Source of the DNA: Candidatus Omnitrophota bacterium
GTDB lineage: Bacteria; Omnitrophota; Omnitrophia; Omnitrophales; Aquincolibacteriaceae
Assembly (NCBI GenBank): GCA_043808175.1
Contig: JAZDFE010000030.1
Location: 1-60,875, forward strand
Reading direction: 5' to 3'
DNA length: 60,875 bases
Shown: piece by piece, positions 11,418 to 44,358 of the stretch
Numbering within the stretch: the stretch's first letter is position 1
Layout of the letters: every line of letters starts with the position of its first letter
The notes under the pieces: generated by a model
The model's input: the letters and a program-made list of their open reading frames with translations, nothing else
Databases searched by the model: none
Told to the model about the DNA's origin: nothing
Position numbers and translations under genes: made by a program

Positions 11418-11507
11418 GTCATGTCCAATTCTCCATCAGAAAATTCAAAGGTTAATGGGACTAGCCCTGGCAACCTTCTATCAAAAAAAAATGGAGGCTA
11501 GGGCATG
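11418..11507 (+). repeat. 84-bp palindromic element (family A) at the helicase start
   Basis: Ungapped match to copies at 14014-14103 and 26120-26209; gtcatg/ggcatg 84 bp apart. Confidence 0.95.
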
Positions 11508-13472
11508 TCATTTCAATTGGACCCGTTCCAGCTCCAAGCCATCGAATGGATCGAAAAAGAACATTCCCTTCTTGTCTCCGCACCCACGGGCTCAGGCAAA
11601 ACGCTCATCGCCGAAAAAGCCGTCGAAAAAGCTCTCTCACGCGGCGAGCAAGTCATTTACACCGCCCCGATCAAGGCCCTGAGTAATCAGAAATTCCGGG
11701 ATTTCCAGGAACATTTTGGCAAAGAGACGGTCGGTATCCTCACCGGAGACGTTTCCATCAACCCGGGAGCGCCGCTCCTCATCATGACGACCGAGATCTA
11801 CCGGAATTCCCTTTTCGAGAACGCGGAACGCATCCAAAAGATCGGCTGGGTTATTTTTGACGAGGTCCATTATCTGGATGACGCCCAACGCGGCACGGTC
11901 TGGGAAGAAGCTCTCCTTTTCACGCCCCCGGAGATCCGCATCCTTGCTCTGAGCGCCACGATCCCGAACGTCCAGGAACTCGCGGACTGGATCCGTCAGA
12001 TCCACCAACGTCCCATCGCCGTGATCGAAGAGACGCATCGCCCCGTTCCGCTCCATTTTCTGTTCCAATGTCAAGGCAAGATCCTTACGAACACAAAATC
12101 GCTTAGAAAAGAAGGCTATCTTCAGCGCGACAATTGGCAGCTTTCCATGCGGGAAAGGCGCCGCGGGTTCCAATCTCCCCGCGCGCGACCGAATCGCCTC
12201 AATGACATCCTGAAGCATCTCATCAATGGGGATCAACTCCCCGCCATCTATTTTGCGTTCGGACGGAAACGCACAGCCATGCTTGCCTGGGAAGTCGCGC
12301 ACTTTGATCTTTTGAGGGAGGCAGAACGTCGCGAAGTCCGGACGCTTTATGACGAACTCCTGGCGCGCTACGACCTGGCCGGTGATAAGACCGCCGAAGA
12401 GATCCGCCCGCTCATCGAACAAGGTATTGCCTACCATCACGCGGGCATGCTTCCGACGCTCAAAGAGGTCGTCGAAAGACTTTTCACGAGCCGCCTGATC
12501 AAGCTCATCTTCACCACTGAAACCTTCGCGCTGGGGATCAACATGCCGGCGCGCACCGTGGTCTTCGACGAGCTTGAAAAATTCTACGGCACGGGGTTCA
12601 AACCGCTCACCACACGCGATTTTTTTCAAATGGCCGGACGCGCGGGACGGCGCGGCATGGACCCGGAAGGTTTCGTTTACTGCCGCATTCATCCGAACGA
12701 CATCCCCTTTCCCGAAGTGGAACGCATTCTTTACGGGAAACCGGAGCCTGTGCGCAGTCAGTTGAACGCCACGTACGCAACGCTCCTGAATCTTTACAGA
12801 ACGCTCGGGCACAAACTTCTCGAGATCTATCCTCGCTCCTTCCATTTTTTCCAGTCCTCCAAACGGAAACGCGACGAAGGGTTCGATCTTCTGAAGAACA
12901 AGCTCGCGCTCCTGCAGGAGATGGGCTACATCACCGACCAGGGGACGACAGAAACTCAGGGTATGCTCACGGTCAAAGGGGAATTCGCGGCCTCGATCTT
13001 CGGTTTTGAGCTGCTTCTTACGGAAATGTACACCGATGGCGCGTTGGAGCAGTTGGACGAGGCGAAATTGAACGTCTTTTTGGCGGGATTGATCTTTGAG
13101 CCGAGAAAGAACGACGAGGCCCCGCGGCTCGGCAAGGACCATGGCGAATTACTGAAAATGACCCAGCATTATCACCGGATGGTCTTCAAATGGGAATCCA
13201 ATTTCCGCGTCACGCCCCACACCAAGCCTCCCTATTTTCATCTCGCTCGCCCCATCGAGGCATGGACGCAAGGTAAGGATTTCGAAAAGATCTGTCAGCT
13301 GACCTCGGAAGACGAGGGAAGCCTAGTGCGTTACATACGGATGGTGATCCAACTCTTGCGGGAGATCGCCAATGCACCGCACGCCTCCGAAGGCCTCAAG
13401 GCGAAGGCAAGGCGCGCGAGAACTATGATCGACCGGGACGTGGTGGACGCAGAAAAGCAACTGCGGATCTAA
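11505..13472 (+). CDS. Ski2/HelY-like DEAD/DEAH-box helicase
   Basis: APTGSGKT, PIKALSNQK, DEVH, LSAT, HHAG, TETFALGINMPA, QMAGRAGRRG, DSHCT-like C-terminus. Confidence 0.95.
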   Translation: MSFQLDPFQLQAIEWIEKEHSLLVSAPTGSGKTLIAEKAVEKALSRGEQVIYTAPIKALSNQKFRDFQEHFGKETVGILTGDVSINPGAPLLIMTTEIYRNSLFENAERIQKIGWVIFDEVHYLDDAQRGTVWEEALLFTPPEIRILALSATIPNVQELADWIRQIHQRPIAVIEETHRPVPLHFLFQCQGKILTNTKSLRKEGYLQRDNWQLSMRERRRGFQSPRARPNRLNDILKHLINGDQLPAIYFAFGRKRTAMLAWEVAHFDLLREAERREVRTLYDELLARYDLAGDKTAEEIRPLIEQGIAYHHAGMLPTLKEVVERLFTSRLIKLIFTTETFALGINMPARTVVFDELEKFYGTGFKPLTTRDFFQMAGRAGRRGMDPEGFVYCRIHPNDIPFPEVERILYGKPEPVRSQLNATYATLLNLYRTLGHKLLEIYPRSFHFFQSSKRKRDEGFDLLKNKLALLQEMGYITDQGTTETQGMLTVKGEFAASIFGFELLLTEMYTDGALEQLDEAKLNVFLAGLIFEPRKNDEAPRLGKDHGELLKMTQHYHRMVFKWESNFRVTPHTKPPYFHLARPIEAWTQGKDFEKICQLTSEDEGSLVRYIRMVIQLLREIANAPHASEGLKAKARRARTMIDRDVVDAEKQLRI

Positions 13473-13500
13473 CGTTCTCTTTCTCCCAAAAGCGTTCCGT

Positions 13501-16500
13501 CTATTCTCCCAACTCTTGTTTCTCTGTCAGTCCTGCTTTTTCATCCTCTTGGCGGATCTTCTCAAGAATGATCGGTAACTTCCATTTTTCAATACGGCAT
13601 ACGGTGTCGTAAGGGCAGAAGCTTTCACAATCCCGGGGCCGCACCGGGATCTCGGATGACAAGATCTCCTTTGTGAACTTTTGGACGAACGCCACTGCCC
13701 GGTCCAAAGTCTTTTGGAACACTTCATCCGGAAGCTGCGACCGGGAGGAAAATTCTTTTTCAAATAACTGGGCGCCCCCTTCACTGTAAAACCCACTCCG
13801 TTTGTGATCACGAATGGAATAGATCTCGGCGCCGAGAGGCGTGAGGCCCAGGTGCTTTTTTGCGGCTAAAAGATAAAGCGGCAACTGGAGCGCGGTCCCG
13901 AGTTCGAGGCTCGCGGCCTTGAATCTCGCGGAACGTTTGTAGTCGATCACGACCGCGAACTTCTTTCCGTCATCCGTATCGATCCGATCCACCCGCCCCC
14001 GCAACTTGATCTTCTTGCCCTGGCATCTATTTTCTTCTGTCCGAAGGTTGCCAGGACTAGTCCGATTAACTTTCGAATTTTCTGATGGAGAATTGGACTT
14101 GCCTTCGCCTTCGATCTCGAGAGCCGAGTGGTCATTTTCTCCGAAGTCACCAAAGGAATATTCCACGTGGCACGGCTTGAAAGACGCATTTTCCAGCCGC
14201 TCCGCTTCATAACTTATAAAATCCACGAGCATCTCGAAGAGTTCGCGGCGATCGAGAGCTTCCTCGTAGGGTTCCGTCCACAGCATCGGATGCCGCTTGA
14301 AGCCTTCTTCTATCTCACGCCGGACGAATTCCTCGAGCTTCTCTTTCGGATCTTTTTTCCCGCAGGGATCAAAATACTGCTGGAGAACGTGATGCAGAAT
14401 GCTTCCTTTTTGCATCGCGCGGATATCCTCGCCTGTATCTTTCAACTTGAGGATCTTGTCGGAAAAATAACGAAAAGGACATTTGGCATAAGTCTCAAGC
14501 CGCGTAGGGCTCGTTTCCGAGATCTCGAAATATCCTCCTTTGAGGATCTTCTCATCCAGGATCTTCGCCTCGATGGGTCTCACGGCAGAAAGAAGACGTT
14601 CGCGGCTTTGAGGATCTCCCGAAAGTTGAGCTAAAGCCTTGCGAAGACCGGCCTCCTGCCCCCTTGCGTCACGAAGAGCGCCGACCACCGAAGCCTCCAA
14701 CTCACGATGCGTGATCGCCTCATCGACCTCGGGAAAAGGCCTCGAAAGGTCCTGACGTATCACGGGCACCTGCCCCCCAAAAAGCTCTTTTACTTCTTCA
14801 AGATAGAATGATGGCAGGGATTCTTTTCCCTCAAAATCAAGATGCGGGTAGCTTAAAAAGAGCTTCTCCTTCGCGCGCGTGATGGCGACATAGAAAAAAA
14901 ACCTCTCGATATTCTGACGGGGCAAACACTCCGCGAGAGGATGTTCCATGCCGCCATTCATCAATTTCCGTTCCCAGTCTGAAAGTAACGGATCTTCGCG
15001 GATCTGCATGGGAAAAACTTTTTCCAGGAGGCCCGCCACGAACACGACCCTGTATTCTTTCTGCCGGGCGAGCGAGACGTCATAGACCTGCACGCGGTTC
15101 TTGTCGCGCTCGTGGAGCGAATAAACGTCCAATTCGACGAGGCCGAGAAAATGATCGGCAAAACTTTCGAAAGAGATCTCCGAAACCCTGCTTTTCAGGA
15201 AATAGCCCCGCATCTCATCCAGAAGAGCCTCGAACCTTTTGACACAGGCTGCGTCCCGGCGCGTGAACGGCGTGTAGCGATCGCTGATCTCCAGGATCCC
15301 GAAAGTATCGTACGCCGCGCGTTTCAAGATCCGGATATGATCTTCCGCGGTCTTCGCCATCCGGAACCGGTCCTCGAGCTCCATGAGAGCTTTAAGCGTT
15401 TCGGTCTTTTTTTGATTGAACCCGGAGAGGCTTCCGGGCTCTCCGCATTTCCAGTCCCCAAGCCAGGCCTCGCGCGTAAGCGCCACGCCTTCCCGGAATG
15501 ACCGCTGTTCGAACTCCGCGAGCCACTCTTTGTCTTTTGCGATATCTTTTCCAAAACGACGCGTGTAGCCGGATTTCAGGAAAGCGAAAACATCCTCCCG
15601 CTTCCAGGCATTACGGAAAACCGAAAGAAGCGACGCGACCGCGGCGATCCAGGATGAGAATTTCAAACGGTCGCGTTCATGGATCTCGGCAGGGATCCCG
15701 TAACGCAAAAAGACCGAAGCGATGACCGGCGCATAATGCCGGATTTGACGGAACAGGACCGCAAAATCGCTGTAGCGGTAATCCCCGGTCGCGTAGAGCT
15801 TGTGGATCTGGCGGGCGATCAATTCGATCTCGCCCTCGGTCCCGATGGCGTCAAGCATAACGATATCCTGCCCCGGTTCCGGTACTGGTCCTGCAGATTT
15901 TTGAGAAAAAATATTTTTTTGAAGGAAAAGAAGCGGCGATTTCCCGGTGCGCCAGGAATGAGGTTTCATCGTCTGCGCTTTGAACCCGAGCTTCTCGAGG
16001 TCCTGCTCTGTCCGGCTCACGGCCTCAAAAGCATCTTCTTTCTCATTGCTATCTTCTTCCGTAAGAGTGATCGTGATGTCCTCCGTAATGGCGGAAAGCT
16101 CCCGGAGATATTCCAATTGTAAATTCGAAAAATCAAAAAATCCGTCAATCCAGATCCCTTTGAATTGCATACCCGGAAGATCCGCCTTCTTTTTCCTCTC
16201 CCGGAAGATGCGGAGAGCATCCTGGCTGTCCCGAAGCCCTTGCTTTTCGAGGCGCGCCTCGTATTGCTCATAGAAATCGGCGAGCGCTTCGTACTTCGCG
16301 GCATAGGTCGGTTCGAAACCCTTGAGCGCGTTCATGCGTTCGCGAAAAATTTCCGGAGGAACGCAGGACTCTTTGAGCTCGGTCATGAACTGCACCATCA
16401 GTCCCGGAAAACCCGGTTGCTCGCACACTCCCTCGAAATAATCCCATGCATTCTCGCGGACAAGGTCCCGGACAATCATCGTGCGGGTCAGACTGGAAGC

Positions 16501-16755
16501 CACGGGAACATCGGTTACGCGGAAAACGTCCCCCGCAAGCCGGGAGAGCGTGGTCACGCGTTTGTGGAAAAATCCTTTGAGGCCCCGCTGGATCAAAAGC
16601 GAGATTACGCGTTCGGTGTGTTCCGCGGAAGGAACGACGAAGAAAAGATCGGCAGCAAGAGGATCGACCGCACTCGAAAGCGCCTCTCCGAAAGAATCCA
16701 GAAGTCTATGGGTCTTCCCGCAACCGGCAGGACCTATTAATAGTGTCTGCGCCAT
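13501..16755 (-). CDS. addB: AddB/RexB-like helicase-nuclease subunit
   Basis: N-terminal GPAGCGKT, IDGF, FYVAITRA, CPFRYF, RGRVDRID..VIDYK nuclease motif, C-terminal Cys triad. Confidence 0.85.
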   Translation of the reverse strand: MAQTLLIGPAGCGKTHRLLDSFGEALSSAVDPLAADLFFVVPSAEHTERVISLLIQRGLKGFFHKRVTTLSRLAGDVFRVTDVPVASSLTRTMIVRDLVRENAWDYFEGVCEQPGFPGLMVQFMTELKESCVPPEIFRERMNALKGFEPTYAAKYEALADFYEQYEARLEKQGLRDSQDALRIFRERKKKADLPGMQFKGIWIDGFFDFSNLQLEYLRELSAITEDITITLTEEDSNEKEDAFEAVSRTEQDLEKLGFKAQTMKPHSWRTGKSPLLFLQKNIFSQKSAGPVPEPGQDIVMLDAIGTEGEIELIARQIHKLYATGDYRYSDFAVLFRQIRHYAPVIASVFLRYGIPAEIHERDRLKFSSWIAAVASLLSVFRNAWKREDVFAFLKSGYTRRFGKDIAKDKEWLAEFEQRSFREGVALTREAWLGDWKCGEPGSLSGFNQKKTETLKALMELEDRFRMAKTAEDHIRILKRAAYDTFGILEISDRYTPFTRRDAACVKRFEALLDEMRGYFLKSRVSEISFESFADHFLGLVELDVYSLHERDKNRVQVYDVSLARQKEYRVVFVAGLLEKVFPMQIREDPLLSDWERKLMNGGMEHPLAECLPRQNIERFFFYVAITRAKEKLFLSYPHLDFEGKESLPSFYLEEVKELFGGQVPVIRQDLSRPFPEVDEAITHRELEASVVGALRDARGQEAGLRKALAQLSGDPQSRERLLSAVRPIEAKILDEKILKGGYFEISETSPTRLETYAKCPFRYFSDKILKLKDTGEDIRAMQKGSILHHVLQQYFDPCGKKDPKEKLEEFVRREIEEGFKRHPMLWTEPYEEALDRRELFEMLVDFISYEAERLENASFKPCHVEYSFGDFGENDHSALEIEGEGKSNSPSENSKVNRTSPGNLRTEENRCQGKKIKLRGRVDRIDTDDGKKFAVVIDYKRSARFKAASLELGTALQLPLYLLAAKKHLGLTPLGAEIYSIRDHKRSGFYSEGGAQLFEKEFSSRSQLPDEVFQKTLDRAVAFVQKFTKEILSSEIPVRPRDCESFCPYDTVCRIEKWKLPIILEKIRQEDEKAGLTEKQELGE
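14014..14103 (-). repeat. 84-bp palindromic element (family A) in frame within addB
   Basis: GGCAAG repeated exactly 84 bp apart; encodes SNSPSENSKVNRTSPGNLRTEENRCQGK. Confidence 0.95.
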
Positions 16756-16761
16756 GTTTTT

Positions 16762-17163
16762 TTATTCATGGTAAACCGCACAACTATCCTGATTCTCCCA
16801 GAGCGTCACCTTGGAGACAGGAAGTTTCATGCGGCGGGCTTCTTGAAAGATCCGCCAGGCGAGCATTTCCGCGGTCGGGTTCTCGTCCACGAGCACCACG
16901 GGCTCGCCGGCTTTTTTGAGGAGCTTCGCGAGAGGGTCTTTCGTCCAGAGGATCATTTTGTGATCGAGATGCCGTTCGATCCACTCCCCGATCGTCCGCT
17001 TGATATCAAAAAAATCCACGACCATCCCCTTGGGGTTGAGCTTTGATCTCGCCATTTCGATCTCCACGCGCGCGCTGTGGCCGTGAAGATGTGAACATTT
17101 GTCATGTCCGCCCAAAAGCCGATGCCCATAATTAAAATAGATCATCTTTGCGACTTTATACAT
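16762..17163 (-). CDS. queD: 6-carboxytetrahydropterin synthase
   Basis: GHRL..KCSHLHGHS, GMVVDF, LDH, NPTAE, WE. Confidence 0.9.
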   Translation of the reverse strand: MYKVAKMIYFNYGHRLLGGHDKCSHLHGHSARVEIEMARSKLNPKGMVVDFFDIKRTIGEWIERHLDHKMILWTKDPLAKLLKKAGEPVVLVDENPTAEMLAWRIFQEARRMKLPVSKVTLWENQDSCAVYHE

Positions 17164-17329
17164 AGCTTGAATCCCTCGAGAACAGTTATGGGAATAATAA
17201 GACGTGGTCATTATGGACGATTTCCGGAGACAAGTCCAATTCTCCGGAAGACCTTTCCCATTGCCGGGGTATCGTATAGAATGCTGTCTCATTCACAGGA
17301 AACGCTCTCATCTCCTGAAAGGGTCCTTG

Positions 17330-17902
17330 ATGTCCGAGATCTCGGCTAGTGAACTGGAAAAAAAACTTTATATTGAAGTGGACGGCCAGCCGTATTTTGT
17401 GCTCGACGTCAAATTTGCAACGCCTTCCGCGCGCGGGGCTTCGACCATGGTCAAGGCCAAGGTGCGCAATCTCCTGAACGGCGCGGTGCTGGACAAGACT
17501 TTTAAGACAAGCGAGAAATTTGAAGTCCCCGACGTGGAAAAAGTTCCGGCAGTCTTTCAGTACATCACCGGCTCAGATTATTATTTTATGGATAATGTAG
17601 CTTATGAGGAATTTGTGCTCACCGCGGAAAAACTCGGCGAACAAAAACTTTATCTTAAGGAGAATCAGGAAGTGCTGGCTTTAAAGTTAAGGGGCACGGT
17701 GGTTTCGTTGGAGCTTCCGGTCTATGTCGAGCTCGCCATCACGGAAACCGATCCCGTCGTCAAAGGGATCTCCGCTTCCGGGCGTTCGCTGAAAAAAGCA
17801 AAGCTTGAAACAGGCCTCGAAGTCCAAGCGCCCCTTTACGCGGAAGCAGGAACTATCTTGCGTGTGAACACCGAAACCGGAGAAGTGTCCGGCCGTGCTT
17901 AA
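17330..17902 (+). CDS. efp: Elongation factor P-like protein (EfpL/YeiP type)
   Basis: EF-P fold motifs; tip loop TPSARGAST and KGISAS resemble YeiP/EfpL. Confidence 0.85.
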   Translation: MSEISASELEKKLYIEVDGQPYFVLDVKFATPSARGASTMVKAKVRNLLNGAVLDKTFKTSEKFEVPDVEKVPAVFQYITGSDYYFMDNVAYEEFVLTAEKLGEQKLYLKENQEVLALKLRGTVVSLELPVYVELAITETDPVVKGISASGRSLKKAKLETGLEVQAPLYAEAGTILRVNTETGEVSGRA

Positions 17903-17919
17903 AAGTCCCTTTTCCCTTT

Positions 17920-18150
17920 CTACCTGATGCCCATTCCGGCATCAACGGGCGAATCATCCATCGGCAGATTTTCGGGAGCCCTTTCGCCGGGCATGGAGTC
18001 CGTATCGCCTTCAAAAGCCGAAGGATCTGATCCGCCGTCATCATCCTGGCTAAAGACCTCCGTAACATCCGACTCGGCATACAATGCCGGCGTTCCCGTT
18101 AAAGCGACAAGAAAAAGAGCCGCCAACCCAAAAACCATTTTTTCTTTCAC
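17920..18150 (-). CDS. Small exported acidic protein
   Basis: GTG start with AGGAGG, signal peptide, Asp-rich tail. Confidence 0.65.
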   Translation of the reverse strand: MKEKMVFGLAALFLVALTGTPALYAESDVTEVFSQDDDGGSDPSAFEGDTDSMPGERAPENLPMDDSPVDAGMGIR

Positions 18151-18183
18151 AATTTCCTCCTTTTAAAAACGCACTCTGTCCGG

Positions 18184-19889: not shown

Positions 19890-19900
19890 GAAGACCCCAG

Positions 19901-20902
19901 TCAGGAAAAAGTGATCTTGCGGACCGTCACACCGGCCTGCTCGAGCAGCTTAAGAGAGGTTTCCAGGAAGGGATAATTCCCCTGGTAGACGACTTCGTTG
20001 ATCCCGGAATTGATGATCATCTTGGCGCACATCAGGCAGGGAGAAAAAGTCGTGTAAAGCGTGGCGCCTTTGAGGCTCACGCCGTGGTAGGCCGCCTGCA
20101 CGATCGCATTCTCTTCGCCGTGCGAGCAGAGGCATTCTCCGAGATCTTTCCCGGAGGCGTCGATCGCATTACATCGGGGACAACCGCCGTCGCTGCAATT
20201 CTTGATCCCCCGGGGCGTTCCGTTGTAACCAGTCGAGATGATACGCTTGTCCTTCACGATCACGGCGGCGATCTTCCGTTTCATGCAGTTGGCACGCATG
20301 GCCACGACCTTGGCAATATTCATGAAATACTCGTCCCAACCCGGCCTCGGAGCCTTTTGCGCAAGATCGAGAAAGATCGACTTCACCTTTTCATGCATCT
20401 CCCTGAGCGGCCCGTTGTTATCGACCTGGAGATCCGCCAAAGCGATTGTTTGATCAAGCTGTTGGTCGGTTTTGCTCGAGCTTTTTGCTTCCTTGGCCTC
20501 AAGCGCCTGAAAGTCCTCCCATACCCGGGGATCGTTCTCCCGGCCACGCTGCTTGAGACGTTCGAAACGAAGCCTTTCCGGAGCATGGATGCGAACGAGG
20601 GTGAAATCACTCCGCCGGCGAAAGACTTGGACTTCGGAGGGATGGCGGATAGAATCGATCACATAATTCTTCTCGGGATCCAGCTTCGCAAAGATCCGTT
20701 CGGCAAGACAACCCGGCCCTTCCTTTTCGCGCAATTCATTGCCGAGCGCGACGAGCGCATCGCGCGCGATCTCCAGGCCGCGTTGCCTGGCCTCTTCCCG
20801 GAGTGCGTCGGAAAGCGAATAGTAATGAAAGCCCCTGTCTTTGAGGAAATTCGCCGCTTCCCCTTTCCCCGATCCGTTCTTGCCTGTGAGTCCGATGATC
20901 AT
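19901..20902 (-). CDS. P-loop nucleotide kinase-like domain fused to dCMP deaminase
   Basis: IIGLTGKNGSGKG..IDSIR N-terminal domain; RPGWDEYFM, TGYNG, HGEENA, PCLMC. Confidence 0.9.
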   Translation of the reverse strand: MIIGLTGKNGSGKGEAANFLKDRGFHYYSLSDALREEARQRGLEIARDALVALGNELREKEGPGCLAERIFAKLDPEKNYVIDSIRHPSEVQVFRRRSDFTLVRIHAPERLRFERLKQRGRENDPRVWEDFQALEAKEAKSSSKTDQQLDQTIALADLQVDNNGPLREMHEKVKSIFLDLAQKAPRPGWDEYFMNIAKVVAMRANCMKRKIAAVIVKDKRIISTGYNGTPRGIKNCSDGGCPRCNAIDASGKDLGECLCSHGEENAIVQAAYHGVSLKGATLYTTFSPCLMCAKMIINSGINEVVYQGNYPFLETSLKLLEQAGVTVRKITFS

Positions 20903-20913
20903 AAGATCCTTTT

Positions 20914-21504
20914 TTATGGGTGGATCCAAAAATCAGGCGCGTAGAAACGCTGATCGCCCGCGTGGCGTTCCACCAGGATAAGATGGTGAGCGTTCTTGCC
21001 GTCTTTTACTTCAGGCAACGCGGCGATCTCGCGAAGAGTTTCTCCGGGTTTCCCGGCCGGGGGTCTTAAAAATCCCACAGACTGTTTCTCCAGATGGAAG
21101 GCCGCCTCTTCAATGTCATCCACACGAAGTGCCATGGCATAAGGCTTTTTATCCCCGAAATGCGCGACCCAATCCAGCCCGGTCTTCTCATGAGGATGCT
21201 CGACCAGGATCGCCGGAGCGCATCCTTTTCGAAAAACTTCCACGCTATGCCCTTTGTGCTCAAGAACCTTGACGGTGGGGTCTCTCTCGTACCCCATCTC
21301 AAGAAATTCGCCCGTTCTCTCTTTGAGATGAACGGTCCGGAAAATGAAATGATCCAAAATGGAAAGGAGGCCGACCCCGACAAGCGACAAACCGCGCGTC
21401 ACGACCTGGGCCGCGGTATTCTCCAGGGCAAGCCCTGCGGCATATTGTTTCAGAATCTTTTCAAAAAGGATGGGGTCCTTGTTGCAGCCGGCAGTAAATG
21501 GCAT
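20914..21504 (-). CDS. VOC/glyoxalase-like protein
   Basis: LDHFIFR, ALRVDDIEEA, LVERH. Confidence 0.65.
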   Translation of the reverse strand: MPFTAGCNKDPILFEKILKQYAAGLALENTAAQVVTRGLSLVGVGLLSILDHFIFRTVHLKERTGEFLEMGYERDPTVKVLEHKGHSVEVFRKGCAPAILVEHPHEKTGLDWVAHFGDKKPYAMALRVDDIEEAAFHLEKQSVGFLRPPAGKPGETLREIAALPEVKDGKNAHHLILVERHAGDQRFYAPDFWIHP

Positions 21505-21624
21505 CTTGATTTCCTTATGGCTGTGTTGCCTACAAAGACAAAGCTTGCCCCCACGGCTTCACTTTTTGAAGTGAAGCAGCGGGGGCAAACTGAGGAAGAC
21601 TCAAAAGGACTTTGAACGGTTTTT

Positions 21625-21936
21625 TTATTTCAGCTTATTCCCCGGCTTTTTCGGGGGTTCATCTTTCGAACGGGGCGTCGCTTTGGGGTTCGACTTGAAC
21701 TGGACTGAAAGTTCTGCATTGATCTTGGCATAAGTCGGATCCATATCCTCGGACTCGACGATCGAGCCTACCGGACATTCCGCCGCGCAAGCACCGCATG
21801 AAATACAGGTCAACGGATCGATCACCATGAAATCCTTGCCTTTGTATGTTCCGGGATAAATCGCTTCGGTGGGACAGACACCGGCGCAAAGGCCGTAGCG
21901 TTCGCCGTGACATTTCTCTGTAATAACATAAGCCAT
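21625..21936 (-). CDS. Ferredoxin (probably 7Fe type)
   Basis: MAYVITEKC..CAGVCP and CISCGACAAECP. Confidence 0.9.
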   Translation of the reverse strand: MAYVITEKCHGERYGLCAGVCPTEAIYPGTYKGKDFMVIDPLTCISCGACAAECPVGSIVESEDMDPTYAKINAELSVQFKSNPKATPRSKDEPPKKPGNKLK

Positions 21937-22012
21937 TCTGTGATTCTCCTTATGGGTGTTGGTTTTGAAAGAGGCCGTATTTTAACCGCTGCTTCCTCCA
22001 TCGTCAATGCTT

Positions 22013-22885
22013 TCAAACCAGGGGCTCCAACCTCTCAGGTGGCCGGCTCATGACCTCAAGACGGGCCATGCGATCTTCCATGGGGGGATGCGTGCTGAAA
22101 AGAGCGGACCACCCTTTGCCCGAAAGCGGATTCGCGATGAAAAGATGGGCAGTCGCGGGTTCGGCGTCGCGGAGTGGAAGTCGTCTGGAAGCGGCATCGA
22201 TCTTTCGAAGCGCACTTGCGAGATAAAGAGGTTCTCCGCAAAGCTTGGCCCCGCCAAGATCCGCCCCGTATTCCCTGGAGCGTGAGATCGTGAGCTGGAT
22301 GAGCATCGCGACCAAAGGCATCACGATCGATGCTAAGATCAGCGCCAGCGGATGGCCGTTGTCCCGCTCGTCACGCTCCCCGCCCCAGAAAAATGACCAG
22401 CGGAACATGGAAGCGATCATGCTGAGCGCGCCGGCCAACGTCGCCGCAATCGAGGACAACAAGATATCGTAATTCAGGATATGCGACAGCTCATGCCCCA
22501 ACACACCGGAAAGTTCTTCCTTGTTAAGAAGTCCAACGATACCGTGTGTGACCGCGATCGCCGCATGCTTGGGGTCGCGGCCCGTGGCAAAGGCGTTCGC
22601 TGAAGCCGACGGAAGCATGTAAAGCCGCGGCATGGGAACGCCGGCTTTTGCCGAAAGCTCCCTCAGGATCTCAAAAACCTCGGGGGCTTCATCCTCGGTC
22701 AGGGGTTGTGCCCGATACATCGCAAGCACGATCTTGTCACTAAACCAATAAGCGCCAAAATTCATCACACAGGCAAGACAGAACGCGGGCGCCATGCCGC
22801 GCTCGCCGCCTAAGGCAAACCCAAAAAAAACCACCAAAAGCGTCAGGAGCGCTAAAAGGAATGTGGTTTTAAAAAAATTGGCCAT
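22013..22885 (-). CDS. htpX: Zinc metalloprotease HtpX (M48)
   Basis: NAFATG, HELSH, SRSREYGAD, STHP. Confidence 0.95.
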   Translation of the reverse strand: MANFFKTTFLLALLTLLVVFFGFALGGERGMAPAFCLACVMNFGAYWFSDKIVLAMYRAQPLTEDEAPEVFEILRELSAKAGVPMPRLYMLPSASANAFATGRDPKHAAIAVTHGIVGLLNKEELSGVLGHELSHILNYDILLSSIAATLAGALSMIASMFRWSFFWGGERDERDNGHPLALILASIVMPLVAMLIQLTISRSREYGADLGGAKLCGEPLYLASALRKIDAASRRLPLRDAEPATAHLFIANPLSGKGWSALFSTHPPMEDRMARLEVMSRPPERLEPLV

Positions 22886-22897
22886 TCCCTTGTCCCT

Positions 22898-23518
22898 TTA
22901 GAACTTGATACCGAGTTTACGAAGGGTCTTGAGGAGGGCGGAACAGCCCTTAAAATGGATGGCGTGCATGCCGGCCTTCCGGGCGCCTTTGATAAAACTC
23001 TTCATGTCATCGATAAAAACGGTCTCTTCGGGCCTGAGGCCGACCTTCCTCAGGACGCGCCGGTAGATCGTGAGGCAGGGTTTGCGCGCACCCACCTCAT
23101 GCGACGGAAATTTCCGGTCGAAATGACGGAGGAGTTTGAAATGCTTCTTGAGATGAGTGAAGTGGAGCGCGTTGGTGTTCGAGATCAGATAAAGCGGATA
23201 GTGTTTCTTGATCCGCGCAAGGAGTTTGTCCATCCCCGGGTTCTCCCAGAAGATGTCGTTCCAATAATGGCGAAAGGTCGCTAGAGGTAGGGAGACACCG
23301 AGGGTTCTGCAAGCGATCCGGTGGAATTCGCGGGTCGAGATCTCGCCGCGCGTATAGGCCTGCTCGAACCTGGAAAGAAAGAAACGCTTCCAAATCTGCC
23401 GGGTGGAAAGACCCGAGGCGGCCGAAAATCGCTTTGCAGCTTTTTCGACATCATAATTCACAAGCACATTGCCGAGATCGAAAATCACGGCTCTGATCTT
23501 TGGGTTTTTATTTTTCAT
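22898..23518 (-). CDS. HAD family phosphatase (YihX-like)
   Basis: FDLGNVL, ISNTN, KP, FIDD. Confidence 0.9.
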   Translation of the reverse strand: MKNKNPKIRAVIFDLGNVLVNYDVEKAAKRFSAASGLSTRQIWKRFFLSRFEQAYTRGEISTREFHRIACRTLGVSLPLATFRHYWNDIFWENPGMDKLLARIKKHYPLYLISNTNALHFTHLKKHFKLLRHFDRKFPSHEVGARKPCLTIYRRVLRKVGLRPEETVFIDDMKSFIKGARKAGMHAIHFKGCSALLKTLRKLGIKF

Positions 23519-23550
23519 AGGCTGGGTATTTTAACATACCTCTTATAAAA

Positions 23551-23607
23551 ATGGATGGAGGATGGAGCTTGGCTTTTCGCCCTCTGCCATCCTCCTTCCG
23601 TCATCCG
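23551..23607. repeat. Heptamer-based palindrome (GGATGGA-type)
   Basis: atggatggaggatggagc followed by complementary ccatcctcc tracts; related copies at 35440 and 48527. Confidence 0.7.
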
Positions 23608-24758
23608 AGTAAAGCGACCCATTTACACAGCTGGCTCGTAATGAGACCCAAATACGTCCCCATCACGTTCCCAAGAATGCCGAGGAGAAGCCCGACAGGT
23701 GCGAGTGCGGGTTCATAAGCCGCAGCCACGATCGGCGCCGAGGCCGGCCCCCCGATATTAGCCTGGCTCGCGGTCGCGGCAAGACAAAGCGGGATACGGG
23801 CAACGCGGGACACGATCAGAAGAAATGCCCCATGGATGAGAACCAGGACAACGCCAGCCACGACCAGAAGCGGCGCGGACAGGATCCCTGACAAACTTGC
23901 TCTTGCACCGATCGATGTAAGCACGAGAAACAGGAAAAGATACCCTATCCGCGAAGCGCCACAGAACTCGAGCTTCCGAAGCGACGTCAATGAAAGCAAA
24001 ATGCCGAAGGTCGTGGCGAGAATGATCGTCCATGCAAAAGATCCGTTCCCCAAGAAATCTGCCAACCTACTCGAAATCCACGCTCCGCCGAATGCTACGG
24101 CAAGAGTGAGAGGAAGAAACTGGAAGCTTACTTTTTTTGTGCTCGAGTCCGCCAAAGTGGTCTTTCGGGCCAGTTCCTCGACGAAGCGAAGGTCGGAACG
24201 GTTCCACTTGTCATAAGCTTTTTGAAAACCTTCGAGCAGGATCAAGAGCCCCATCCAGGAATAGGCAACGACCGTATCCACCACGATCATCGGAAAAAAG
24301 ATAGCGTCCGGCGTGTGGATCGCCTCCTTGACCGCGATCATATTGGCGCTCCCGCCGATCCAGGAAGCCGAAAGCGCCCCGAACCCTGACCACGCGTCCG
24401 CCGGAAGCCACGGTTTAAAAAGCATCACCACGAACGGCGTGCCGATCATGATCCCAGCGCTCCCGGTGAACATCATGAGAAGCGCAGGCCGGCCGAGTTT
24501 CAAGATGGCTTTGATATCCGTCGAGATCAAAAGAAGGATCAATCCCGCGGGAAGAACCGTGCTCGTGATCTTCGAATAGATCGCGTGTTGCCCGGGAAGG
24601 ATCCCGGACCCGGAAACCATCATGGGAACAAAATAGATCCAGAAAAGCGGCGGCGGGAACTTGAAAAATTTACGGGTTCGCGGATCTTCGGAAAAGAAAA
24701 CGATGCTCAGAACGATCAGCGCCAGAACGCAAAAAATACCTGGAGAATTTTGAATCAT
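23601..24758 (-). CDS. DUF819 family membrane protein
   Basis: Polytopic; SWIGGSANM and SQANIGGPASAP motifs. Confidence 0.9.
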   Translation of the reverse strand: MIQNSPGIFCVLALIVLSIVFFSEDPRTRKFFKFPPPLFWIYFVPMMVSGSGILPGQHAIYSKITSTVLPAGLILLLISTDIKAILKLGRPALLMMFTGSAGIMIGTPFVVMLFKPWLPADAWSGFGALSASWIGGSANMIAVKEAIHTPDAIFFPMIVVDTVVAYSWMGLLILLEGFQKAYDKWNRSDLRFVEELARKTTLADSSTKKVSFQFLPLTLAVAFGGAWISSRLADFLGNGSFAWTIILATTFGILLSLTSLRKLEFCGASRIGYLFLFLVLTSIGARASLSGILSAPLLVVAGVVLVLIHGAFLLIVSRVARIPLCLAATASQANIGGPASAPIVAAAYEPALAPVGLLLGILGNVMGTYLGLITSQLCKWVALLG

Positions 24759-25834
24759 GGGAGGAGCGGCGCGACGCCGATACCGGCCCTGACTTTCCGG
24801 AGGTCATAAACGCCGGAGCGTGTCACAAAATTGCCCTGCGTCACGTTCTTCGCCATAAAAAAAGGTGCGTCTAAGTCCACGAAATCAAAACCGCCGAGCC
24901 CTGCCGCAAGATGCGCGGCCGCGGTGACCGCCAGCGGCGTTTCCATCATCGTCCCGATCATCAGCTTGATCCCGTTCCGTTTCGCAAGACACGCGATCTC
25001 GTATGCCTCCAGAACGCCTGTCTTCATGAATTTGACGTTGATCGCACCGGCAGCTTTTGTCTTGATGAGACGCTTGGCGTCCTGAAGTGACGAGATGCTT
25101 TCATCAGCGCAAACAAGCGTTTTGCCTTCACGCGTTACTTTCGCGAGCCCTTCCCAATCCTCTTTTGGTACCGGCTGTTCGACAAGCGCGGGTTTTATTT
25201 TTAGCCTTTCTAATTCTTTTAAAAATTTGAGCGTCTGTGCGGCCGTAAACCCCTGATTCGCGTCAAGATAGACCGGACATTTTCCGGTGATCCGGACCAC
25301 CGCCGCGACGCGTTTGAGGTCCCGGTCGAAATCCCGGCCGATCTTCACTTTGAAAGAACGTATCCCACGCCGCAGGATCTCACGCGTTGCGGTTTCGGCT
25401 TCGGTGACATCGCCAAGCACCACGGTCATGTTGGTTTTGAGCGCGCGCGGCCGAGGCCCGAAAGCTTTCCAAAGCGGGATCTTCTTTTCGCGTGTCGCCG
25501 CGTCCAGAAGCGCCATTTCCAGCGCCGCCAGCGCGCACTTGTTCTTCGCCCACTTCATTTTAAATTCTTCCGCGATCTCCGAAAATGCCTCGAGACCCAG
25601 ACCGGCGATTGAACGAGCCGCTTCTTTCAGATTTTTGAGCGTTTCATGGACGGTCTCCCCGGTGATGTGCGTCGCGACCGCTGCCTCGCCGGACCCGCGG
25701 ACCCCGTCTGAGAGTTCTATCAAAAAAAGGACATTCTCGAGCAGGTCGTGCTGGCCCTTGGCCGTACTGAACGGGCGTACGAGCTTCGCACGCCAGATCC
25801 TGGCCTTTGCTTTTTGGATGCTCACCGGCTTCAT
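24755..25834 (-). CDS. L-Ala-D/L-Glu (dipeptide) epimerase, enolase superfamily
   Basis: KVKIG, DANQG, EQP, DES, KFMKTG, terminal DLD. Confidence 0.9.
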   Translation of the reverse strand: MKPVSIQKAKARIWRAKLVRPFSTAKGQHDLLENVLFLIELSDGVRGSGEAAVATHITGETVHETLKNLKEAARSIAGLGLEAFSEIAEEFKMKWAKNKCALAALEMALLDAATREKKIPLWKAFGPRPRALKTNMTVVLGDVTEAETATREILRRGIRSFKVKIGRDFDRDLKRVAAVVRITGKCPVYLDANQGFTAAQTLKFLKELERLKIKPALVEQPVPKEDWEGLAKVTREGKTLVCADESISSLQDAKRLIKTKAAGAINVKFMKTGVLEAYEIACLAKRNGIKLMIGTMMETPLAVTAAAHLAAGLGGFDFVDLDAPFFMAKNVTQGNFVTRSGVYDLRKVRAGIGVAPLLP

Positions 25835-25855
25835 AGTTTCTCTTTCAGGGAGTTT

Positions 25856-26021
25856 TACTGGCACTGCGTTACTATTGATTTTAGGGATTCGTAGTGCCGT
25901 ACCGCCCAAATTTTATATTCTTTTCTGAAATGGTAATTTGGGCGGCCCCAATCTCAGCTTCGCTGAGACTGATTGGTATTGGGACCGTTAACCCTTAAAA
26001 TTAAATAGAGAACGGTACTGG
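25856..26021. repeat. Four-hairpin composite array
   Basis: Stems ggcactgcg/cgtagtgcc, ccgcccaaatt/aatttgggcgg, cccaat/attggg, accgtt/aacggt; flanked by direct tactgg. Confidence 0.85.
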
Positions 26022-26098
26022 TCTTCATTTTTCGTTCGGGCTATACTACCGCAAATTCGAAAAAGGGGATAGCTCCCTCAACAAACCGGATTCGTTCT

Positions 26099-27376
26099 AT
26101 GAAAAAAATTATACTAAAAGGCAAGCCCAATTCTCCATTAAAAGATTTAAATGTTAATTGGACTAGTCCTGGCAATCTTCTGTTTAAAAAAAATAGATGC
26201 CAGGGCAAAGCCGTTGTCGGGCAATCCGGCGGATGCACGGCGGTCATTAATCAAAGTCTCGCGGGCGTCGTGGAAGCGGCACGGACCTGCCGCGTGATCA
26301 CGGGGATCCTCGGGTCGCGGAATGGCATCGAAGGCATTCTGAATGGTTCTTTTGTGGATCTCAAGGCAAAGCCATCAAAATTGATTCTCCGAATCGCCCA
26401 ATCCCCTTCCGCCGCGCTGGGTTCTTCCCGTTACAAACTCAAACCCGGAGATGACCGGAAGATCGTTGCGAGCCTCCGGAGACATCATATCCGCTATGTA
26501 TTCCTGATCGGAGGGAATGATACGGCAAACACTAGCCTCCAGATCGCAAGAGCCGCAGAAAAAGATCATTATGAGATCCGGGTTATCCATATCCCGAAGA
26601 CCATTGATAACGACTTGGTTGAGACTGACCACTGCCCGGGGTACGGTTCTGTCGCGCGCTTCGCGGCCGTCACGACGCAGGAGGCGGCGCTGGACACCCA
26701 AGCCATGAAAAATGTCGATCCTGTGAAGATCATCGAGCTTATGGGAAGAAATTCCGGCTGGATCGTCGCGGCCTCGGCCCTCTTGAAAAAAGCACCGGAG
26801 GATGCTCCCCATCTCCTGCTCATTCCCGAAGTCCCGTTCGACGAGACGTCGTTTATTAAAAGGACCGAGGCCATTCTGCAATCGGTGGGTTATTGCATTA
26901 TCGTTATTTCGGAAACGATCCGCGACTATCAGGGAAACCGCATCGGCCACAAAATCGAGGGGGTCACGTCAGACCCGTTTGGTCACAAATATGTCGAAGG
27001 CACGGCGGCGCGTCTTGCCACGATCCTCGAAAAAAATCTGGGGGTCCGCGCCCGTTTCGACAAGCCCGGAACAATCCAGCGCATGTCGATGGCTTACGTC
27101 TCAGAGACCGATCAAAAAGAAGCCTATCAGGCGGGCGTTCACGCGGTCAAGTGGGCCCTCCGGGGAATGACCCGGGTCATGGTGGGATTTGAAAGAAAAC
27201 CAGGAAAGAATTACGCTATGGCTTACAAGCCGGTACCGCTCGAAAAGATCCCGAATCATGAGCGCGACCTCTTTGCGGGATTTTTTGACAAGAAAAAAGG
27301 GATGGTCACGCCGGCCTTCGTGGAATACGCCCTGCCGCTTCTCGGCAAAGGCCTCCCCCATTTCGCCTCGCTCTAG
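26099..27376 (+). CDS. pfp: Pyrophosphate-dependent phosphofructokinase
   Basis: GQSGG, GGND, PKTIDND (Asp and Lys signature of PPi type), MGR. Confidence 0.9.
   Translation: MKKIILKGKPNSPLKDLNVNWTSPGNLLFKKNRCQGKAVVGQSGGCTAVINQSLAGVVEAARTCRVITGILGSRNGIEGILNGSFVDLKAKPSKLILRIAQSPSAALGSSRYKLKPGDDRKIVASLRRHHIRYVFLIGGNDTANTSLQIARAAEKDHYEIRVIHIPKTIDNDLVETDHCPGYGSVARFAAVTTQEAALDTQAMKNVDPVKIIELMGRNSGWIVAASALLKKAPEDAPHLLLIPEVPFDETSFIKRTEAILQSVGYCIIVISETIRDYQGNRIGHKIEGVTSDPFGHKYVEGTAARLATILEKNLGVRARFDKPGTIQRMSMAYVSETDQKEAYQAGVHAVKWALRGMTRVMVGFERKPGKNYAMAYKPVPLEKIPNHERDLFAGFFDKKKGMVTPAFVEYALPLLGKGLPHFASL
26120..26209 (+). repeat. 84-bp palindromic element (family A) in frame within pfp
   Basis: ggcaag/ggcaaa 84 bp apart; encodes PNSPLKDLNVNWTSPGNLLFKKNRCQGK. 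Confidence 0.95.
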
Positions 27377-33263: not shown

Positions 33264-33296
33264 GATTCCTCCTTAATGAAAAAATGAATTAGAAAC

Positions 33297-34168: not shown

Positions 34169-34209
34169 GAGTAACAATATACTACATACAAGCTTTAGCG
34201 TTGAAATCT

Positions 34210-44353: not shown

Positions 44354-44358
44354 AAGCC

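Follow-up and report, generated by a model that had tools for sequence, protein, structure and literature searches.

Palindromic repeats that code for protein segments were reportedly first described as a peculiarity of Rickettsia. The Rickettsia palindromic elements (RPE-1 and relatives; Ogata et al. 2000, 2002) are described as fused in frame into unrelated conserved genes, with the peptide tolerated, and as intergenic in other cases (PMC10969869, PMC2229807). According to Table 1 of PMC2229807, they are 105 to 146 bp long and form a single long stem-loop closed by terminal repeats of about 12 bp, with no target duplication established there. For three RPE families, "nearly half" of the copies are given as in frame (PMC10969869, PMC2229807).

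Scattered REP dimers inside repair genes were reported later (PMC3733652). In the GTAG- and CGTC-tagged superfamilies, pairs of hairpins within open reading frames (ORFs) encode 20 to 30 residues (Di Nocera et al. 2013, PMC3733652). The available text of that paper describes tagged units of 20 to 40 bp, mostly extragenic, with 8- to 9-bp stems, loops of 4 to 5 nt, and an unpaired GTAG or CGTC tag. It reports an enrichment of intragenic dimers in genes for DNA replication and repair (uvrA at several sites, uvrB, recBCD, and helicases) and in tRNA synthetase genes, gives Opitutus terrae as the richest GTAG case, and mentions a RAYT gene flanked by repeats (REPtron) for GTAG REPs and no linked transposase for CGTC repeats. 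MITEs with open frames that can be fused to genes include the 107-bp Correia element, ERIC, and QMITE1 (PMC2229807, PMC5896051).

The window, i.e., the whole 60,875-nt stretch of Omnitrophota DNA analyzed here, contains three copies of an 84-bp two-hairpin repeat. The three ungapped 90-nt blocks of the original prediction, their translations, and the flanking hexamers 84 bp apart (GTCATG/GGCATG, GGCAAG/GGCAAG, and GGCAAG/GGCAAA) are all confirmed. The copies, a remnant, and their host genes are as follows.

11418..11507, plus strand: element copy 1, left GTCATG followed by the 84-bp unit with its GGCATG end, inserted on the helicase start codon
11505..13472, plus strand: host gene for a DEAD/DSHCT helicase (PF00270, PF08148)
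13501..16755, minus strand: host gene for AddB (PD-(D/E)XK nuclease, ADDB_N), from domain matches and 3u44_B (E = 2e-42)
14014..14103, minus strand: element copy 2, GGCAAG followed by the 84-bp unit with its GGCAAG end, in frame in AddB directly upstream of KIKLRGRVDRID
17229..17245, plus strand: element remnant, GACAAG and the first 11 nt of the element
26099..27376, plus strand: host gene for phosphofructokinase (PFK), from a domain match and the 3hno_A alignment
26120..26209, plus strand: element copy 3, GGCAAG followed by the 84-bp unit with its GGCAAA end, in frame after codon 9 of the PPi-type PFK

The best explanation overall, with a probability of about 80%, is that these copies belong to an old family of non-autonomous mobile repeats that persist in frame or on start codons and are recurrently gained and lost. 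The element is non-autonomous because 84 bp is too short for an enzyme, and it is mobile, now or formerly, because of the filled and empty alleles at the three window sites, the nesting of copies, and the non-monophyletic PFK insert.

Filled and empty alleles are found in related genomes at all three window sites, metagenome contigs provide further empty AddB, PFK, and helicase sites, and filled and empty pairs differ by exactly 84 bp. The PFK site is filled in 4 and empty in 12 of 16 genus loci, the empty ones reading MKK..LKGK/AVVGQSGG (the slash marks the site); in the filled query, residue 38 aligns with residue 6 of 3hno_A. Grouping of the filled taxa is rejected in the PFK tree (p-AU 0.0009), which needs at least 3 changes. 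At the AddB site, G004 has the copy, and the empty allele is seen in G011, in G017, and in contigs of runs X3 and X5. Without the insert, AddB of two congeners reads EIEGEGKP/IKLRGRVDRID and EIGDKEKK/IKLRGRVDRID, which, together with the 12 empty PFK loci, bears out the expectation that removal of the insert restores normal proteins. G004, G010, G013, and G018 carry the copy on the helicase start codon, and G005 has the empty site. A further in-frame copy lies inside the helicase in G004, G005, and G010, at a position that corresponds to about 12957 of the window and is empty in the window genome (G000). The remnant at 17229..17245 has lost the rest of the element and about 55 bp of flank relative to a full copy in G004. 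Gain or loss of copies has recurred at individual sites. Over 15 kb of the window, the orientation of the copies tracks that of the host gene (plus, minus, plus) and not one replication arm.

The claim that all three copies extend their host proteins in frame holds for AddB and PFK but not for the helicase. In copy 1, frame 0 is closed by a TAG two codons before the duplicated ATG (position 11505), yet the copy is in frame with that ATG, and GGAGG is located 7 nt upstream of it. This copy is therefore a 5' leader in the window genome and lies outside the helicase protein; in G004 and G018, the same copy has an open frame through to the helicase.

A profile built from the three window copies has 11 hits at E ≤ 0.001 in the 1.435-Mb genome, and a degenerate 27-mer core has 148 matches in 18 of the 19 genus genomes (0 for the reversed control). 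The only genus genome without elements is G012, and the most copies (20) are found in G008. A search of 185,579 species representatives yields 41 stretches with the exact pattern, 21 of them in records titled Candidatus Omnitrophota or Omnitrophica and 20 from "uncultured bacterium" MAG records. The 84-bp family is found only in one genus of Candidatus Omnitrophota, its matches being otherwise only to such MAG records, and it is old, being common to species that differ at about 47% of synonymous sites. Opitutus terrae probably belongs to the same superphylum as Omnitrophota. No match to the 84-mer is found in Rfam, either at the gathering score or at E ≤ 1, or in plasmid, phage, and viral-contig collections, and the search of the literature on Omnitrophota repeats returned nothing relevant.

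The original interpretation needs a correction here: the 84-mer is only a minor branch of a far larger superfamily, which is represented by about 90 near-full copies in the window genome. This superfamily is restricted to one family of Omnitrophota, and its other branches likewise insert and nest in frame. Its additional members in the window are the following.

59..287, plus strand: two superfamily copies (59-157 and 189-287) within a larger repeat that is also found at the ends of contigs C1, C5, and C23
25895..25994, minus strand: superfamily copy with a type-A first hairpin, CGG-flanked, in the spacer upstream of PFK
33295..33395, minus strand: CTG-flanked superfamily copy, from the superfamily search
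34206..34333, minus strand: superfamily copy and half copy in tandem, from the same search
44277..44356, minus strand: truncated, TAG-flanked superfamily copy, from the same search

The copy at 25895..25994 is missing from site-bridging contigs of runs X2 and X3.

Of 124 full copies of the 84-mer, 81 lie in frame 0 within long ORFs, at internal (69), C-terminal (7), or N-terminal (5) positions. Start codons are occupied by another 13, whose frame is closed, 23 are outside any long ORF, and 7 lie only in an ORF of another frame. The 81 coding copies form about 51 site clusters, a few of them still split, and the counts overstate the number of independent events because many copies are orthologues. 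The host genes, dozens of them essential, are unrelated and code for AddB, PFK, helicases, UvrA (at least 3 sites), FtsK, LeuRS, UbiD, an XerC/D-like protein, histidine kinases, RbfA, and others. This census agrees with the proposal of a non-autonomous, protein-invading family. All 81 coding copies are in the sense orientation and in a single frame; the antisense frame R1 is free of stops in 50 of them but is never the frame used. The exact length of 84 bp is kept in 80 of the 81 coding copies, compared to 13 of the 43 others (p = 2e-17). Intragenic copies survive only in the sense orientation, in one frame, and with a length that is a multiple of three, a bias that would reflect selection on survivors rather than frame-aware insertion. 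The encoded 28-mer is hydrophilic and rich in Ser, Pro, Asn, Gly, and Lys; its translation is predicted from the conservation of frame and length. Nested copies in PFK, LeuRS, an AroE-like gene, and UvrA are also in frame, there are 8 tandem junctions, and in-frame nesting and tandem arrays add 56 or 84 residues to proteins.

Where a copy has landed on a start codon, the gene is restored by the duplicated ATG, with the element as its leader. A GAGG or GGAG before the terminal triplet is present in 17 of 23 start-codon or ATG-ended copies, compared to 20 of 81 in-frame copies (p = 3e-5). In the start-codon copies, the GAGG is usually 7 nt upstream of the duplicated ATG, where this part of the 3' arm may serve as the ribosome-binding site.

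It is very improbable that the insert is anything other than mobile DNA, whether a linker peptide passed on vertically, an artefact of assembly, or an intervening sequence spliced from RNA or protein. Its shortness and hydrophilicity would suit a linker, and nothing more specific speaks for such an origin. Linker and artefact are contradicted by the presence of the same nucleotide sequence in unrelated genes and in non-coding DNA, by the empty sites, and by the occurrence of elements in 18 genomes with separate assemblies and in contigs from three other runs. As to splicing, 84 nt is far below the size of an intein or a group I or II intron, and such a variant is unlikely because an exact length of 84 bp and an open frame are maintained in 80 of 81 coding copies, which would be needless if the insert were spliced out of RNA.

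The element consists of two hairpins, whose stems start with GTCC and end with GGRC, with CTAG between them. Each hairpin is about 41 nt long, with a loop of about 23 nt and a paired GTCC/GGRC foot. The alignment shows two independent 9-bp helices (columns 5-13/37-45 and 47-55/79-87), in line with the structure originally proposed, and pairing is found in 92% of cells over 38 copies, compared to 19 to 45% with the partner columns slid. Folded as single-stranded DNA, copies 2 and 3 have z scores of -2.3 to -2.9 and copy 1, which is degraded, one of -1.4. Covariation inside the 84-mer is thin and comes mostly from pair 10-40 (CG in 18 copies and AU in 14), with no double change found in the second helix. 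A set of 79 second hairpins includes 44 different 9-mer stems, with 655 of 711 pairs being Watson-Crick. Stem mismatches on the strand of the element are G.T in 89 cases and A.C in 31.

Insertion takes place at CAWG, in a preferred context, (A)GGRCAWG, that resembles the 3' end of the element itself, and the tetranucleotide ends up on both sides. The left flank has CAWG in about 90% of copies, and the right end repeats the bases of the left flank, with rare variants (ACG, CTG, and TAAG) mirrored. At each of positions -4 to -1, the flank has the same base as the element end in 90 to 94% of the 124 copies, and a deviant base at position -2 is mirrored in 42 of 46 copies. At the site inside the helicase, G004 has the repeats GGCACG/GGCACG, G005 and G010 have GGCCTG/GGCCTG, and the empty site of the window genome is GGTATG. 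The 84-mer thus has the target-site duplication of a MITE but not the terminal inverted repeats of a parent IS, as its own are only 3 to 4 nt long.

The mobilizing enzyme would act in trans on the folded single strand. A RAYT-like Y1/HUH protein is the best candidate for this role, although a weak one, and a transposase with a 4-bp staggered cut is nearly as likely. Matches to Y1_Tnp (PF01797) are found in 15 of the 19 genus genomes; G012, which has no elements, is without one, as are three genomes with elements (G018, G014, and G005). The RAYT-like protein of the window genome scores 48.6 bits against a curated cut-off of 80, and its C-terminal half is unrelated. The anticipated RAYT/IS200 gene bordered by the same ends was not found: 10 Y1 loci are free of elements over 1.5 kb on either side, and no such hairpins lie next to the RAYT-like gene in the window genome. 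No autonomous partner for the 84-mer was found, and self-comparison of the window genome (77% complete) reveals no long repeat with the element ends. Classical IS200/IS605 transposition inserts 3' of a fixed short target, with which the left-hand CAWG agrees, but produces no target duplication, and the mirrored flank of the 84-mer looks like one.

The possibility of a classical MITE, i.e., double-stranded DNA moved in trans by a DDE-type transposase with a 4-bp staggered cut at CAWG (and at NTAG, NCGG, etc., in the sister branches), would explain the mirrored 4-nt direct repeat. It would also fit the nested copies that have their own repeat (ATAG/ATAG and, once, ATGG/ATGG), the CGG-flanked copies that show GCGG/GCGG inside other copies, and the DDE_Tnp_1 genes in 8 of the 19 genus genomes (IS110 is found in 3 and TnpB in 1). 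This possibility is nevertheless doubtful: the termini share only YCC/GGR, there are two separate hairpins instead of one long inverted repeat, each branch would need a target specificity of its own, and the excess of G.T on one strand has no role in double-strand transposition. Furthermore, G008, with its 20 copies, has no DDE_Tnp_1, IS110, or TnpB match, and neither does the window genome at 77% completeness. Site-specific recombination between the core of a circular or folded element and a look-alike target core, with the "duplication" being the shared crossover region, is considerably less probable. Here, the resemblance of the targets to the 3' end of the element extends beyond the tetranucleotide (G at -6 in 82 and A at -8 in 76 of 124 copies), the base at -5, A or G, shows partial covariation (of 55 copies with A at the right end, 31 also have A on the left), the junction is shared in tandem arrays, and the same sites are used repeatedly. 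However, the match beyond -4 is only 46 to 64%, no dedicated recombinase is identified, and the sole tyrosine recombinase seen, an XerC/D-like host gene, is itself a target.

In 17 independent same-site pairs, the element has pS of 0.108 and pN of 0.085, compared to 0.471 and 0.075, respectively, in the flanks. The synonymous difference (chi-square, 128) has the same direction in 15 of the 17 pairs, with the element lower, and at the UbiD site the low synonymous divergence is visible by eye across five species. This approximately fourfold higher synonymous conservation of same-site copies than of the host genes was unexpected, and it is not predicted for a purely selfish relic. Concerted evolution is no explanation because copies from one site resemble each other more across species (mean best identity, 0.914) than copies from different sites do within a genome (0.847). 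Codon-position entropies are 0.58, 0.31, and 0.34, so variation is mostly at first positions and the peptide as such is not the conserved object. Conceivably, although this is tentative, copies are kept by the host after insertion as functional nucleic acid or peptide modules, which is compatible with a mobile origin; the pS values and the exclusion of concerted evolution speak for such a role. As judged from sequence comparison, the in-frame copies may be under purifying selection at the nucleotide level, recruited as a cis-acting DNA or RNA site within coding sequence, possibly with repair, replication, and translation genes as favored hosts and with the GAGG permitting a landing on start codons without loss of the gene. 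Such a role is in doubt, as losses are harmless, with empty sites in close relatives and no element at all in G012; the first-position variation argues against a conserved peptide; and an appearance of constraint could arise if a slowly evolving master had inserted anew, independently, at hot spots, as mirrored repeats at 3 sites suggest.

The suggestion that the family had not been described stands for the 84-bp family itself, which is new to Rfam and the literature searched, but not for the kind of element, which is already known from the RPEs and the intragenic REP dimers (PMC3733652). By their published description, the RPEs are likewise short, non-autonomous palindromic repeats in frame in unrelated genes, with no transposase known for either. 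In contrast to them, the 84-mer is shorter, has two hairpins and a mirrored CAWG, occurs in another phylum, and is in frame in about two thirds of the copies. The 84-mer departs from the RPEs as described in that its matches (41 stretches, in agreement with the genus-level searches) are confined to Omnitrophota and MAG records and in that there is no long single stem-loop; in-frame copies in unrelated genes are common to both.

With the tagged REPs, as described, the 84-mer shares paired small hairpins within ORFs and over-representation in repair, replication, and tRNA synthetase genes. It differs in the size of its hairpins and loops, the paired foot, the fixed head-to-tail unit, and the mostly coding location. 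Its structure is not that of a GTAG- or CGTC-tagged REP: the 9-bp stems fit, but the loops and the foot do not, and no RAYT gene flanked by the repeats was found at the 10 Y1 loci or at the RAYT-like gene of the window genome. CGTC- and TAG-like strings are found at the hairpin junctions of sister branches, and a distant relationship to the tagged REPs is possible. REPIN/RAYT and IS200/IS605-derived elements (in part, PMC3733652) resemble the 84-mer in having hairpins at both ends, a strand-specific fold (here, the G.T excess), and a conserved short sequence by the left hairpin, and Y1/HUH genes are present in most genus genomes; they differ in that none of the Y1 loci inspected is flanked by 84-mers and the mirrored flank is not made by their mechanism. 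The MITEs cited above are also small mobile repeats with occasional in-frame fusion and short direct repeats at the ends, but these have clear terminal inverted repeats, mostly TA duplications, and an in-frame minority, whereas in-frame copies of the 84-mer are the majority.

In the annotation of Omnitrophota genomes, these repeats account for odd insertions and misplaced starts in gene models. The 19 related genomes, with their many filled and empty sites, constitute a natural experiment on the tolerance of proteins to random loop insertions and the origin of new peptide segments, and the excess synonymous conservation poses the testable question of whether such elements acquire a host function. 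Next to the RPEs and the intragenic REP dimers, the 84-mer represents a third, independent, and unusually clean case, in an uncultivated phylum, with 28 codons fixed in a single frame in 81 of 81 coding copies and with start codons as a second way for copies to persist.

The three blocks in the window have the positions, flanking hexamers and translations that the original prediction gave them. They are copies of an 84-bp two-hairpin repeat (the 84-mer), flanked by CAWG, that adds a 28-aa peptide in frame, and the features discussed here lie in the window as follows.

1-354, larger repeat that includes a TAG-flanked copy
11400-11420, TATACT/TATAAT then ACC, ahead of the helicase gene
11418-11507, plus strand, copy 1, helicase start
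14014-14103, minus strand, copy 2, within AddB
25985-26010, TATACT/TATAAT then ACC, ahead of the PFK gene
26120-26209, plus strand, copy 3, PFK N-terminal site

Searched with a profile of the three copies, the window genome (G000; 1.435 Mb in 42 contigs, 77% complete) gives 11 places at E ≤ 0.001. The G+C content is 43% in the element and 52.5% in this genome. The finding is real, and the reading of these blocks as a protein-invading mobile repeat family is essentially right.

At the PFK N-terminal site, 4 of the 16 genus loci are filled (G000, G004, G006, and G017). The other 12 are empty and read MKK..LKGK joined directly to AVVGQSGG, the normal start that removal of the insert had been predicted to restore; solved PPi-dependent PFKs have just five residues ahead of the AVVGQSGG motif. 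The AddB site is filled in G000 and G004, and the empty alleles sought there are present in G011 and G017. The helicase start site is filled in G000, G004, G010, G013, and G018 and empty in G005. In three public runs, contigs of related organisms read across the AddB and PFK insertion points and come out 84 bp shorter. G004 has an extra in-frame copy within the helicase, at a position that is empty in G000, and one full copy of G004 corresponds to a remnant of only 17 nt in G000. On the PFK tree, the grouping of the four filled genes is rejected (p-AU 0.0009), and at least three gains or losses are required; the grouping of three of the four, chosen after inspection of the tree, is also rejected (p 0.006).

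Further inserts were seen in the same host genes. The PFK of G008 (L168:~15045, contig G008:C1) has an empty N-terminal site and an in-frame copy near residue 366, reading MTRVMVGFDRKP followed by KYVISYKP. The AddB gene of G004 carries a second 84-bp insert (L071:4756-4839, G004:C8:24756-24839) that is absent in G000 (window ~14360-14366). This insert is G+C rich and palindromic (CCGCCACAA...TTGTGGCGG, then CCGTCCTCCGGCGG), shows no kinship to the 84-mer, and may represent a further in-frame repeat family; the similar CCGTCCTCCGCC is found in another insert, specific to G004, between AddB and the PTPS gene. For the C-terminal part of AddB, a search of the PDB at E ≤ 0.001 gave nothing. The full-length protein does match 3u44_B, the alignment being weak in the stretch that adjoins the insert (domain E 160).

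The AddB piece with copy 2 has matches in 17 of the 18 other genomes of the genus; 5 genomes from other genera of the family and 16 from elsewhere in the order give no match. Among representatives of 185,579 species, the exact degenerate 27-mer core occurs in 41 stretches, 21 of them under the record title Candidatus Omnitrophota or Omnitrophica and the other 20 in MAG records called just "uncultured bacterium". When up to 3 mismatches are allowed, 148 core matches turn up across 18 of the 19 genus genomes (5 to 20 per genome), and the reversed-core control has none in these 19 genomes. G012 (97% complete, about 1.5 Mb) is the sole genus member that has neither the 84-mer nor copies of the superfamily of two-hairpin repeats described below. 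Viral contigs have no matches to two patterns, and plasmid and phage collections have none to the element.

For the census, all core matches with up to 3 mismatches were rescanned with their flanks, which gave 165 hits, 140 of them full length and 124 with a score of at least 55; 25 partial hits were left out, as were 16 full-length ones scoring below 55 in nhmmer, the latter being sister branches or decayed copies. When the 124 copies are compared with open reading frames (ORFs) of at least 120 codons, 69 are internal, 7 lie near the end, and 5 lie near the start, and all 81 of these coding copies run in sense and use the frame previously proposed. Thirteen copies sit on a start codon and have a closed frame, 23 have no long ORF around them (10 of these end in ATG), and 7 lie inside an other-frame ORF only. 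None of these 7 is a convincing internal insertion; they are mostly 87 to 89 nt long, at gene boundaries, or in tandem pairs. The length is exactly 84 bp in 80 of the 81 coding copies versus 13 of the 43 others.

The 81 coding copies fall into about 51 site clusters, with a few orthologous sites still split. Their hosts include AddB, PFK (two sites), DEAD and Upf1-like helicases, UvrA (at least three sites), FtsK, LeuRS, UbiD, a XerC/D-like recombinase, histidine kinases, RbfA, and inositol monophosphatase, among others. Eight tandem junctions were seen, and one histidine kinase contains three in-frame copies in succession. The three window copies, in plus, minus, and plus orientation within 15 kb, track the direction of their host genes, which speaks against a replication-strand bias in this stretch. 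Of the 81 coding copies, 50 have no stop in antisense frame R1 and 29 have none in frame +1, and neither frame is ever used; we infer that the frame bias reflects survival of a single hydrophilic reading.

The left flank mirrors the end of the element. Across the 124 copies, the two agree at each of the last four positions (C-A-W-G) in 90 to 94%, at positions -5 and -6 in 59 to 64%, and beyond -8 at background level, and of the 46 copies whose right end has a base other than A at -2, 42 repeat that base in the left flank. At the helicase-internal site, the repeat is GGCACG on both sides in G004 and GGCCTG in both G005 and G010, and G000, which is empty there, has GGTATG. The size difference between filled and empty alleles is 84 bp, which, together with the mirrored end bases, indicates that the CAWG tetranucleotide is duplicated. 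The target tends to look like the element's own end, (A)GGRCAWG.

Copies at start codons, including window copy 1, have ATG at both sides and vary in length. Of the 13 such copies, 10 have GAGG or GGAG about 7 nt ahead of the second ATG, as do 7 of 10 others that end in ATG; the figure for in-frame copies is 20 of 81, a comparison that overstates independence because many start-codon copies come from one sub-lineage. A conserved TATACT/TATAAT then ACC is located 7 to 60 nt upstream of several start codons, among them those of the helicase and PFK, and recurs at the same places in relatives. At the empty helicase site, it lies just about 7 nt from the ATG, a placement that would suit a leaderless transcript.

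The proposed two-hairpin structure is borne out by the pairing of 92% of cells in 38 ungapped copies, versus 19 to 45% with slid partners (entropy and pair counts cover ungapped 90-nt copies only, 41 and 38, respectively, of the 62 in hand). Among these 38, columns 10 and 40 form C-G in 18 copies and A-U in 14, and the two sides of the second helix never change together. Folding z scores are about -2.3 to -2.9 for window copies 2 and 3; the second hairpin is lost in copy 1.

Divergence was measured in 17 independent, non-overlapping same-site pairs, each formed by internal, exact-length copies of two different species. In the element it comes to 10.8% at synonymous and 8.5% at nonsynonymous sites, compared with 47.1% and 7.5%, respectively, in 80 codons of flanking sequence. 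At synonymous sites, the difference between element and flank gives a chi-square of 128, with the element lower in 15 of the 17 pairs; the low divergence is directly visible at the UbiD site in five species. Selection on the peptide as the main constraint can be dismissed, as variation does not peak at third codon positions and pN/pS in the element is 0.79. Concerted evolution within genomes also fails as the source, since the similarity between copies at different sites of one genome (0.847) is below that between same-site copies of different genomes (0.914). What is left is either nucleotide-level selection on the insert or repeated insertion of a slowly changing master copy at hot spots. 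Some re-insertion is favored by the PFK tree and by the mirrored repeats, and clustering by site, with the same-site partner being the nearest relative in 24 of the 43 copies that have one, favors orthology with constraint.

The 84-mer is one branch of a much bigger repeat family. Profile iteration yields 120 non-overlapping matches in G000, 90 of them near full length, that share the plan NNG flank, TCC-hairpin 1-GG, linker, TCC-hairpin 2-GG, NNG flank, in units of 83 to 84 bp. What sets the branches apart is the first hairpin, the stem of the second one, and the triplet at the flanks (AAG/ATG, TAG, CGG, CCG, or CTG/CAG). In 79 second hairpins, there are 44 different 9-mer stems, with Watson-Crick pairs kept at 655 of 711 positions, and the excess of G.T over A.C mismatches on the element's strand (89 versus 31) points to a fold on one strand. 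A search for one branch detected it in 17 of 18 genus members and, elsewhere in the family, in 4 genomes belonging to three genera; 235 genomes of other families in the phylum gave no match. The other branches are less strict in reading frame than the 84-mer: in G000, they occupy sense frames of UvrB, PriA, and an RnfC-like protein and an antisense frame of an MFS transporter, an inositol-monophosphatase-family protein, and a PD-(D/E)XK nuclease. A CGG-flanked copy, GPSTNSIAAERRLGPSKLPFGKETKSLG, is in frame in the AddB of G010 (L006:~1560-1650, contig G010:C14), about 20 residues upstream of the insertion point in the window, so that two different branches have struck one AddB loop region. TAG-flanked 84-mers are nested in frame within AAG-type copies in PFK (G017), LeuRS, an AroE-like gene, and UvrA.

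The larger repeat at the start of the window consists of GGGTTGAG.CGAGGCA.GC, a TAG-flanked copy, and AAGGACGAGCGGGCA. It is found at or near several contig ends (also G000 C1:1-400, C5:6242-6597, and C23:~5400-5560) and may be the cause of assembly breaks. Two repeat copies (G000:C32:37860-37995 and G000:C39:16400-16530) abut what looks by eye like the 3' end of a tRNA gene, with a GGTTCGA-like arm; the window contains no tRNA.

The search for an autonomous partner by self-comparison of the 77%-complete G000 gave diverged paralogues only, and DDE_Tnp_1 and TnpB have no match in it. Across the 19 genus genomes, DDE_Tnp_1 is found in 8, IS110 in 3, and TnpB in 1, and none of them mirrors the distribution of the element. 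Fifteen of the 19 have a Y1_Tnp match; the element-free G012 has no match to any of these four. No RAYT/IS200 gene flanked by the element's ends was found. Among the RAYT-like Y1 proteins of the genus is one of 221 aa (locus L074). The RAYT-like protein of G000 is a weak match (48.6 bits versus a cutoff of 80) with an unrelated C-terminal half. With no element near any of 10 Y1 loci and no related hairpins in the flanks of this gene, a REPtron is rejected for these loci. Contig C5 of G000 has an IS110-family transposase frame (865-1296; 378 aa, 38 bits) and three superfamily copies at 6327-6760; palindromic repeats are described as targets of IS110 relatives (PMC1525189).

The suggestion that the element is undescribed applies to the family, which has no match in Rfam and no relevant report in the literature found on Omnitrophota or Omnitrophica repeats, and not to the class. 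In Rickettsia, the activity of guanylate kinase has reportedly been compared between forms that have such an insert and forms that lack it. Rickettsia palindromic elements are described as fused in frame into many genes (PMC10969869, PMC2229807). The account of Di Nocera and colleagues includes REP dimers within ORFs that encode 20 to 30 residues, many of them in uvrA, uvrB, recBCD, helicase, and tRNA-synthetase genes, as well as CGTC repeats presented there without a transposase (PMC3733652). Unlike the Rickettsia elements, the 84-mer family belongs to another genus and has no single long stem; it differs from tagged REPs in unit size, loop, unpaired tag, and REPtron, and it does not fit a MITE with inverted termini. 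The 84-mer, documented here by a full genus census, is a new family, new in architecture, within the known class of protein-coding palindromic repeats.
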